NCBI RefSeq assembly: GCF_003334315.1
Contig: NZ_QOWR01000134.1
Strand: one strand, 5' to 3'
Length of the DNA stretch: 397 nt
Source: Escherichia coli
Lineage (GTDB): Bacteria; Pseudomonadota; Gammaproteobacteria; Enterobacterales; Enterobacteriaceae
Notes under the pieces: model-generated
What the model saw: the letters and a program-made list of their open reading frames with translations, nothing else
Databases searched by the model: none
Told to the model about the DNA's origin: nothing
Program-made: the position numbers and the translations under genes
In this document: in pieces, positions 1 through 397 of the stretch
Position numbering within the stretch: the stretch's first letter is position 1
Layout of the letters: each line of letters starts with the position of its first letter

Positions 1-20
1 TTATCGTGAGAGTAATTCAT
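1..20 (-). CDS. insL: IS186 transposase InsL, N-terminal fragment (first 6 codons, MNYSHD...); CDS runs off the window start
   Basis: ATG at 20..18 on the minus strand, followed by AAT TAC TCT CAC GAT = M N Y S H D, matching the recalled N-terminus of the IS186 transposase. It sits 55 nt inside the putative element end. Only 20 nt are visible. Confidence 0.55.
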
Positions 21-52
21 CGGCACGTTAAATCATATCAGGCGTAATACCA

Positions 53-75
53 CAACCCTTAAGTTAGCGCTTATG
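53..75 (-). repeat. IS186 terminal inverted repeat (about 23 bp)
   Basis: Minus-strand read 75->53 is CATAAGCGCTAACTTAAGGGTTG, matching the recalled IS186 terminal inverted repeat. The partner repeat would lie outside the window, so the inverted pairing cannot be verified here. Confidence 0.6.
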
Positions 76-96
76 GGATTACTCCCCGCACAACGG

Positions 97-249
97 CTAC
101 TTCTTCGGTTCGTAAGCGAGAACAGCCTTAAACTCAATATTACGTTCCTTCACCGTAAACTCACACAGCGAGTCTCCGACCAGAAGCGTAAATCCCAGCA
201 CCGTTAAACACAGCACTATGACTGCCGCAAGGGCATATTTCGTCAGCAT
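97..249 (-). CDS. hokE: Hok/Gef-family type I toxin, 50 aa (small membrane-damaging host-killing peptide)
   Basis: ATG at 249..247, stop TAG at 99..97. Product [50 protein letters not shown] has an N-terminal hydrophobic helix (about 178-237 in window coordinates), the conserved SLCE motif and the AYE C-terminal motif typical of Hok/Gef peptides (compare Hok ...SLCEIRY...AYES, Gef ...DLCEVHI...AYESE). It is near-identical to my recollection of E. coli HokE. A GGAGG ribosome-binding site lies 10 nt upstream. Confidence 0.85.
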
Positions 250-285
250 GTTTATATTGCCTCCATGCGAAGAAGGGACTACCAT
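97..285 (-). CDS. Possible mok-like (modulation of killing) reading frame: in-frame N-terminal extension of hok from ATG at 285 (62 aa)
   Basis: In-frame ATG at 285..283 lies 12 codons upstream of the hok start. In hok/sok loci, translation of an overlapping upstream mok frame is required for hok translation and is the target of Sok. No ATG-initiated ORF exists in the other two frames of the leader (M P R V stop at 361; M E A I stop at 266). No clear ribosome-binding site precedes the 285 ATG, so this is weak. Confidence 0.25.
257..285 (+). promoter_or_regulatory. Candidate sigma70 promoter for the Sok-like RNA (-35 TTGCCT at 257-262, 17-bp spacer, -10 TACCAT at 280-285)
   Basis: Hexamers match the consensus at 4/6 (TTGACA) and 4/6 (TATAAT, with A2 and T6 retained) with optimal 17-bp spacing. 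The predicted start near 292-294 is consistent with an antisense RNA covering the mok-like initiation region. Sequence-only prediction. Confidence 0.3.
260..264 (-). promoter_or_regulatory. Shine-Dalgarno sequence (GGAGG) for hok
   Basis: Plus-strand CCTCC at 260-264 is GGAGG on the minus strand, with a 10-nt spacer (CAATATAAAC) to the hok ATG at 249. Confidence 0.7.
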
Positions 286-293
286 CCAAATTG

Positions 294-352
294 TTCGGGT
301 TTGGAGTGGCAGCCCCAGGGTGTACTGACCCCAAAAAGTTGGACAGTTAAAC
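294..352 (+). ncRNA. sokE: Putative Sok-like antisense RNA (antitoxin of the type I TA system); boundaries approximate
   Basis: Position is inferred from hok/sok architecture: Sok is transcribed antisense to the hok mRNA leader and covers the mok translation-initiation region, here just upstream of the ATG at 285. A candidate promoter lies at 257-285 on the + strand. No convincing intrinsic terminator is visible, so the 3' end is uncertain. Confidence 0.4.
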
Positions 353-397
353 ACGAGGCATATAGGTCTGATTCCGATATTCAATTGGAGTCAGACC

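Follow-up and report, generated by a model that had tools for sequence, protein, structure and literature searches.

A probable 21-nt remnant of the hokE 3′-UTR left by transposition of IS186 into a GC-rich hairpin behind the stop codon in Escherichia coli

The 21 nt at positions 76-96 of the 397-nt Escherichia coli stretch analyzed here (the window), which read GGATTACTCCCCGCACAACGG, are very probably what was left of the hokE 3′-UTR after transposition of IS186 into a GC-rich hairpin just behind the stop codon of this toxin gene. A second element, IS150, lies on the other side of the gene, and the double-IS allele thus leaves a 245-bp orphan, made up of a leader fragment and the ORF, between two co-oriented insertion sequences (Table 1); IS150, hokE and the IS186 transposase gene share one orientation. 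Positions 1-320 of the window are base-for-base identical to MG1655, and the window in its full length matches E. coli B REL606 and strain 300709 at 100% identity. The allelic classes compared were represented by L001 (both insertions), L002 and L005 (MG1655; IS186 only), L003 (IS150 only) and L004 (ATCC 25922; neither), and one locus of each class was aligned against the window.

Table 1. Features of the 397-nt window
Feature	Position	Strand	Basis or detail
Left end of IS186/IS421: terminal inverted repeat (75-53) and start of the transposase ORF	1..75	-	orientation same as hokE
hokE 3′-UTR remnant, 21 nt	76..96	-	alignment with IS-free loci
hokE ORF, 50 codons + TAG (99-97), intact	97..249	-	ATG 249-247
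Remaining hokE mRNA leader, 71 nt, with the hok SD GGAGG (264-260) and the 3′ part of the in-frame mokE frame	250..320	-	
Antitoxin RNA gene sokE, first 28 nt, 5′ end 293	293..320	+	MG1655 annotation
CCC, 3-bp target duplication of IS150	318..320		junction comparison
Right end of IS150: terminal repeat and C-terminus of orfB (397-347, minus strand)	321..397	-	orientation same as hokE

The ORF encodes a peptide of 50 aa, and a profile search matched its residues 5-46 to positions 1-42 of the 42 in the Pfam HOK_GEF model (PF01848, E 9.2e-8), as expected for the small hydrophobic Hok/Gef type I toxins. Its scores against the NCBIfam HokA/Hok families fall under the curated cut-offs, and RefSeq names the ORF HokE in all matching E. 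coli genomes. Codon 46 (TAC, window 114-112, minus strand, UACG context) coincides with a reported site of A-to-I editing by TadA that converts Y46 to C. For K-12, an editing level of 40% has been reported for the hokE transcript (PMC12214031), and this also shows transcription of the IS186-only allele.

The 23-bp terminal inverted repeat of IS186, CATAAGCGCTAACTTAAGGGTTG (minus strand), ends at window position 75, and the ATG of its transposase (MNYSHD...) is found at 20-18, 77 nt past the hokE stop and on the hokE strand. Only the left end of the element falls in the window. In L001, L002 and L005 the full IS186 measures 1,339 bp and lies between the two copies of a 10-bp duplication, GGAGTAATCC, one of which corresponds to window 85-76; together with the inverted repeats at both ends and the target described below, this identifies it as IS186 of the IS4 family. 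Because the native sequence carries CCCC at the junction, the C at position 75 can be assigned either to the element or to the target, so that IS186 lies 21-22 nt from the hokE stop and the duplicated target measures 10-12 bp. MG1655 shows the same spacing of 21 nt; its record starts IS186B 3 nt earlier and would thus give 18 nt. Coordinates and sequence therefore confirm what an earlier note had proposed from the window alone, namely an IS186 insertion 21 nt downstream of the hok stop.

Comparison with IS-free loci revealed the structure that was hit. Past the hokE stop these loci read CCGTTGTGCGGGGAGCAATCCCCGCATATCC..., which can be divided into CCGTTG-TGCGGGGA-GCAA-TCCCCGCA-TATCC... and contains a hairpin, UGCGGGGA-GYAA-UCCCCGCA, with a perfect 8-bp stem from +7 to +26 (L004 3232-3251) and a GNRA tetraloop that is GCAA in L004 and GUAA in the K-12 allele. 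In the window, the remnant comprises, counted from the stop, a spacer at +1 to +6 (96-91), the hairpin 5′ arm UGCGGGGA at +7 to +14 (90-83), the loop GUAA at +15 to +18 (82-79) and UCC of the 3′ arm at +19 to +21 (78-76). IS186 entered between +21 and +22, that is, within the 3′ arm of the hairpin. The empty site, GGGGAGYAATCCCC, has the form GGGG-AGYAAT-CCCC and is a literal match to GGGG-N6-CCCC, within the preference of IS186 reported as 5′-GGGG(N6/N7)CCCC (PMC6925257). The earlier suggestion that the CCCC at the junction fits a preference for GC-rich targets is thereby sharpened to an exact match.

IS-free orthologues also allowed the native 3′-UTR to be reconstructed. Beyond the IS186 point it runs on for ∼80 nt: the rest of the post-stop hairpin is followed by an fbi-type segment, GCACCU, at +55 to +60, and a terminal hairpin of 14 bp occupies +71 to +102. 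This bears out the claim that the insertion cuts the hok 3′-UTR. The fbi-type segment is complementary to the mRNA 5′ end, GGGUGC. The 5′ end of the hokE mRNA was set by homology and by the Rfam hok leader model (RF01794), which matches IS-free hokE over its full length with 82.3 bits and starts exactly at GGGUGCC, supporting a 5′ end at this position. The native mRNA as reconstructed here is 404 nt long, and in its minimum free energy fold (z = -8) nt 1-6 (GUGCCU) close onto AGGCAC at +53 to +58. Scans of the window and of the native locus returned no canonical promoter or terminator. Since no terminator was found in the 21 nt, one of the outcomes that the earlier note had held against its own reading, a native mRNA end within this segment, did not materialize.

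When hokE was taken by itself, the 5′/3′ duplex was not exceptional (dG -15.2, with 106 of 1,000 shuffles equally good), and because this single-locus test was not significant, family-wide concordance and covariation were used. The homologues compared with hokE were hokC, restored by removal of its IS, and seven plasmid hok loci at 40-48% protein identity. In seven of the eight hok loci, the best 3′ partner of the homologous 5′ 12-mer was located at +40 to +66 past the stop; in one homologue, L013, the best duplex was not at the expected site. A structure-blind MAFFT alignment of the eight hok mRNAs placed the 5′ and fbi segments in shared columns, and RNAalifold predicted from it a closing helix of columns 1-6 with 382-387 that carries two compensated pairs (pair 4, six UA and two CG; pair 6, five CG and two UA) and no broken pair. 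An explicit pair count over this sample, which is small at 8 sequences from ∼6 independent lineages, found 47 of 47 cells paired, a value reached by 1 of 500 shuffles, compared with 25-64% in slid registers. The helix agrees with the tac/fbi end-pairing model described as established for the hok family (PMC9841398). These comparisons map the fbi-type element of hokE to +55 to +60, which is 34 nt or more past the IS186 junction, and in IS186 alleles such as L001 the insertion separates this segment from the ORF. The UTR of the window ends at +21, so that the contiguous 3′ fbi of hok/sok loci is missing, while IS-free hokE has both a complete leader and a contiguous fbi. As a separate observation, the 3′-UTR of an R1-like plasmid hok copy on pKP09085 (L012, 203-432) is of the typical kind, with the fbi CUGAAGCGCC, and the region upstream of this copy, in which the conserved GGG[UC]GC start of the leader is missing, seems to have been replaced or rearranged.

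This anatomy suggests what the insertion would do to the mRNA. Entry of IS186, with duplication of GGAGTAATCC, moved the remainder of the UTR ∼1.3-1.35 kb away, and with it the 3′ hairpin arm, the fbi-type GCACCU and the terminal 14-bp hairpin. An mRNA deprived of end-pairing and of its native 3′ end could not be stored as a stable, inert full-length form awaiting slow 3′ trimming, and post-segregational-type control would be lost, if hokE follows the plasmid R1 hok/sok model. Folding in silico is in line with the first part of this proposal. The 5′ end of the restored K-12 mRNA is predicted to be paired with the fbi (P unpaired 0.03), whereas in RNAs that begin at the native 5′ end and extend 0-300 nt into IS186 it pairs locally at nt 27-59 and the closure is lost. 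No comparable substitute partner for the hokE 5′ end was found in the first 200 nt of IS186. Further on, at nt 410-423 of IS186B (L005), ∼430 nt past the junction, there is a fortuitous complement to the hokE 5′ 12-mer, AUCAGUGCGCCCGG (-19.9 kcal/mol), which could conceivably substitute for the lost fbi. The predicted folds gave no clear change in mok SD accessibility between the IS allele and the native mRNA, and no clear de-repression of the mok or hok SD. The insertion would be expected to cripple or deregulate hokE expression, a step from lost end-pairing to crippled regulation for which the R1 paradigm is the guide.

Besides the cut in the 3′-UTR, the allele of the window carries a further lesion, which is probably the more severe of the two. 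IS150, which the earlier note on 76-96 did not mention, has its right end 71 nt upstream of the hokE ATG, inside sokE, with the terminal repeat TGTACTGACCCC... on the plus strand from 321. Only this end falls in the window; in L001, where both ends are present, the junctions read ...tcaaccc|TGTACTGCACCC on the left and ...CAGTACA|ccctgggg on the right, with TGTACTG... repeats and a CCC duplication, as for IS150 of the IS3 family, and the CDS is annotated as an IS150 family transposase with programmed frameshift. Owing to this insertion, the hokE promoter region, the tac hairpin with the 5′ end at GGGUGCC, and both the SD and the ATG of mokE are displaced by 1.4 kb. Of the ∼147 nt of the hokE mRNA leader, 71 remain, and this loss accounts for the low score of the window against RF01794 (24.4 bits, gathering score 59, with part of the alignment running into IS150), so that no complete leader is recognized. 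SokE keeps 28 of its 60 annotated nt (window 293-320), and IS150 splits its terminator hairpin, which leaves the window with no complete antisense Sok gene. It is the loss of promoter, tac and mok start, added to the truncation of sokE, that makes the 3′ cut only one of two IS lesions.

In the native locus, a 33-codon ORF precedes hokE in the same frame (L002 2974-3225) and is analogous to the annotated mokC; the latter shares the stop of hokC. In the window the mokE frame stays open into IS150 and, counted from a TTG at 384, makes up a mechanical ORF of 95 aa. A candidate sokE promoter, TTGCCT (257-262) and TACCAT (280-285), was read by eye; it matches at 8 of 12 positions and lies under the scan threshold. 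An inverted repeat at window 365-397 (ggtctga...tcagacc) was considered as the hok 5′ hairpin and rejected, being located inside IS150 orfB, and an Rfam sok match across 241-397 was discarded as partly spurious, since it extends into IS150.

The distribution of the alleles was determined in 5,426 complete E. coli genomes. The IS186-hokE junction was present in 1,964 (∼36%) and the uninterrupted 3′ site in 3,647 (two thirds), while an IS150-hokE junction was detected in 550 (∼10%) and both insertions, as in the window, in 345 (∼6%). The IS186-junction and uninterrupted counts add up to more than 5,426, with an overlap of ∼200 genomes that is probably explained by tandem hokE arrays. One such array, in strain 181.1 (L016 2468-7514; L006), has three tandem hokE copies, with a tandem unit of ∼504 bp and with IS186/IS421 directly downstream of each copy and in two orientations; the position in the hairpin was read from the sequence for the elements on either side of the entD-proximal copy. 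A tandem unit of this size has been reported for NRG857c hok-2.1/2.2 (PMC7232551). The hairpin has also been hit in a paralogue. In MG1655 hokC (L007 388-1752), IS186A lies 22 nt past the stop in the homologous hairpin GGCGGGG-AGTGAT-CCCCGCC, with the target site duplication GGAGTGATCC and in the orientation opposite to that at hokE, and represents an independent hit. A G≥4 N3-8 C≥4 motif occurs just past the stop in most of the plasmid hok homologues examined.

These recurrent hits bear on what the insertion means. It may be functionally neutral, hokE having already been no working killer and the hairpin being a transposition hot spot instead of a site of selection against the toxin. We consider this a serious possibility, somewhat short of an even chance. 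The perfect GGGG-N6-CCCC target, the independent IS186 insertions in hokC and, in two orientations, in tandem hokE copies, and the recurrence of the post-stop motif among hok homologues all point in this direction, as does a report that IS-free chromosomal hokA, hokB and hokC do not mediate PSK (bioRxiv 10.1101/2025.08.07.668861). However, neutrality questions only the consequence and the cause of the insertion, and the anatomy stands uncontradicted. Moreover, conservation of the leader (82 bits, RF01794) and of the compensated tac/fbi helix in IS-free hokE argues for a function there, and the site is uninterrupted in two thirds of the genomes.

The opposite possibility is that the IS-flanked remnant is expressed and active, through read-through or outward transcription from the upstream insertion sequence and free of SokE control, so that it causes low-level membrane toxicity or stress phenotypes. 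"Dead" may indeed be too strong a word for hokE, whose mRNA is detectable and edited in K-12 and for which the sokE::IS150 allele has a phenotype. The ORF and its SD are intact and co-oriented with IS150 and the IS186 transposase gene, hokE mRNA has been reported to be higher in REL606, a double-IS strain, than in MG1655 (PMC3446290), and sokE+ in place of sokE::IS150 was reported to suppress RecA-dependent viability in engineered K-12 strains (bioRxiv 10.1101/2024.04.20.590381). Against this, the SD and start of mokE have been removed, and the R1 model couples the translation of hok to these; the predicted folds leave the hok SD no more than partly accessible (P unpaired 0.5), and the mechanism of the sokE phenotype was, in that report, left uninvestigated by its authors. 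In REL606, IS150 is in addition split by a reversed IS1, which makes simple read-through from an IS150 promoter unlikely in that strain. We judge an active remnant unlikely. A more specific version, which we regard as quite unlikely, would have hokE RNA entered from IS150 or IS1, lacking end-pairing and SokE, yield a low level of HokE that lies behind both the mRNA level of E. coli B and the RecA phenotype; in IS186-only alleles, the hokE promoter would read into the IS186 transposase gene. If true, expression of the transposase would be coupled to the toxin promoter in K-12-type alleles.

Finally, an end of the native hokE transcript at the post-stop hairpin, which would put IS186 outside the transcript and leave nothing truncated, is highly improbable: a strong hairpin does stand directly past the stop, but no U-tract follows it and the terminator scan was negative, the element splits the hairpin itself and would imply damage even then, and a compensated fbi-type helix and a terminal hairpin lie downstream at positions as in seven other hok loci. 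We retain the reading of 76-96 as a remnant of the hokE 3′-UTR left by IS186.

IS186 next to hokE is already known for K-12 since Pedersen & Gerdes 1999, and sokE::IS150 has been published too. What is added here is the exact structure targeted, an 8-bp hairpin with a GNRA loop that coincides with the IS186 consensus, an explicit location for the hokE fbi-type element with covariation support, and a census of alleles over 5,426 complete genomes together with tandem arrays in which every copy is interrupted. The alleles form a natural series that can be used to ask whether chromosomal hok loci do anything, and the laboratory strains K-12, B/BL21 and XL1-Blue differ at the hokE locus.

Compared with known systems, the locus is a decayed member of a known family and not a new system, as had been supposed from the sequence: hokE is a known gene, the leader, fbi and sok features fail in the window, and both IS alleles have been published. 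According to Pedersen & Gerdes 1999, as cited in PMC6733600, PMC12214031 and PMC7232551, hokA, hokC and hokE of K-12 are inactivated by insertion sequences close to, and not in, their ORFs. The closest relative at the 3′ side, hokE-IS186B of K-12, has the same ORF, 21-nt spacer, IS186 orientation and duplication as the window; it differs in that the leader and sokE of MG1655 are intact, whereas the window has IS150 from 321. At the 5′ side, the sokE::IS150 allele has been described in the XL1-Blue lineage and in more than 400 natural isolates (bioRxiv 10.1101/2024.04.20.590381); the parent lineage of the K-12 derivative used in that work carries IS186 at hokE. This allele and that of REL606 are identical to the window throughout, with IS150 within sokE and the CCC duplication, but in REL606 IS150 is split, outside the window, by a nested, oppositely oriented IS1A (L015 13543-15446). 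The hokC (gef)/sokC-IS186A locus of K-12 shows the same post-stop hairpin, a 10-bp duplication, and an fbi and terminator displaced to the far side of the element, and differs in being a paralogous locus with the IS reversed and with a canonical U-tract terminator in hokC. To our knowledge, PSK activity has never been shown for hokE. IS-free hokE shares with plasmid R1 hok/sok the gene order, the RF01794 leader, the in-frame mok-like ORF, the antisense sok, the post-stop hairpin and the 5′-3′ closing helix. The differences are that hokE is chromosomal and that the window lacks the promoter, tac, the mok start, fbi and a full Sok, all of them lost to the two insertions.
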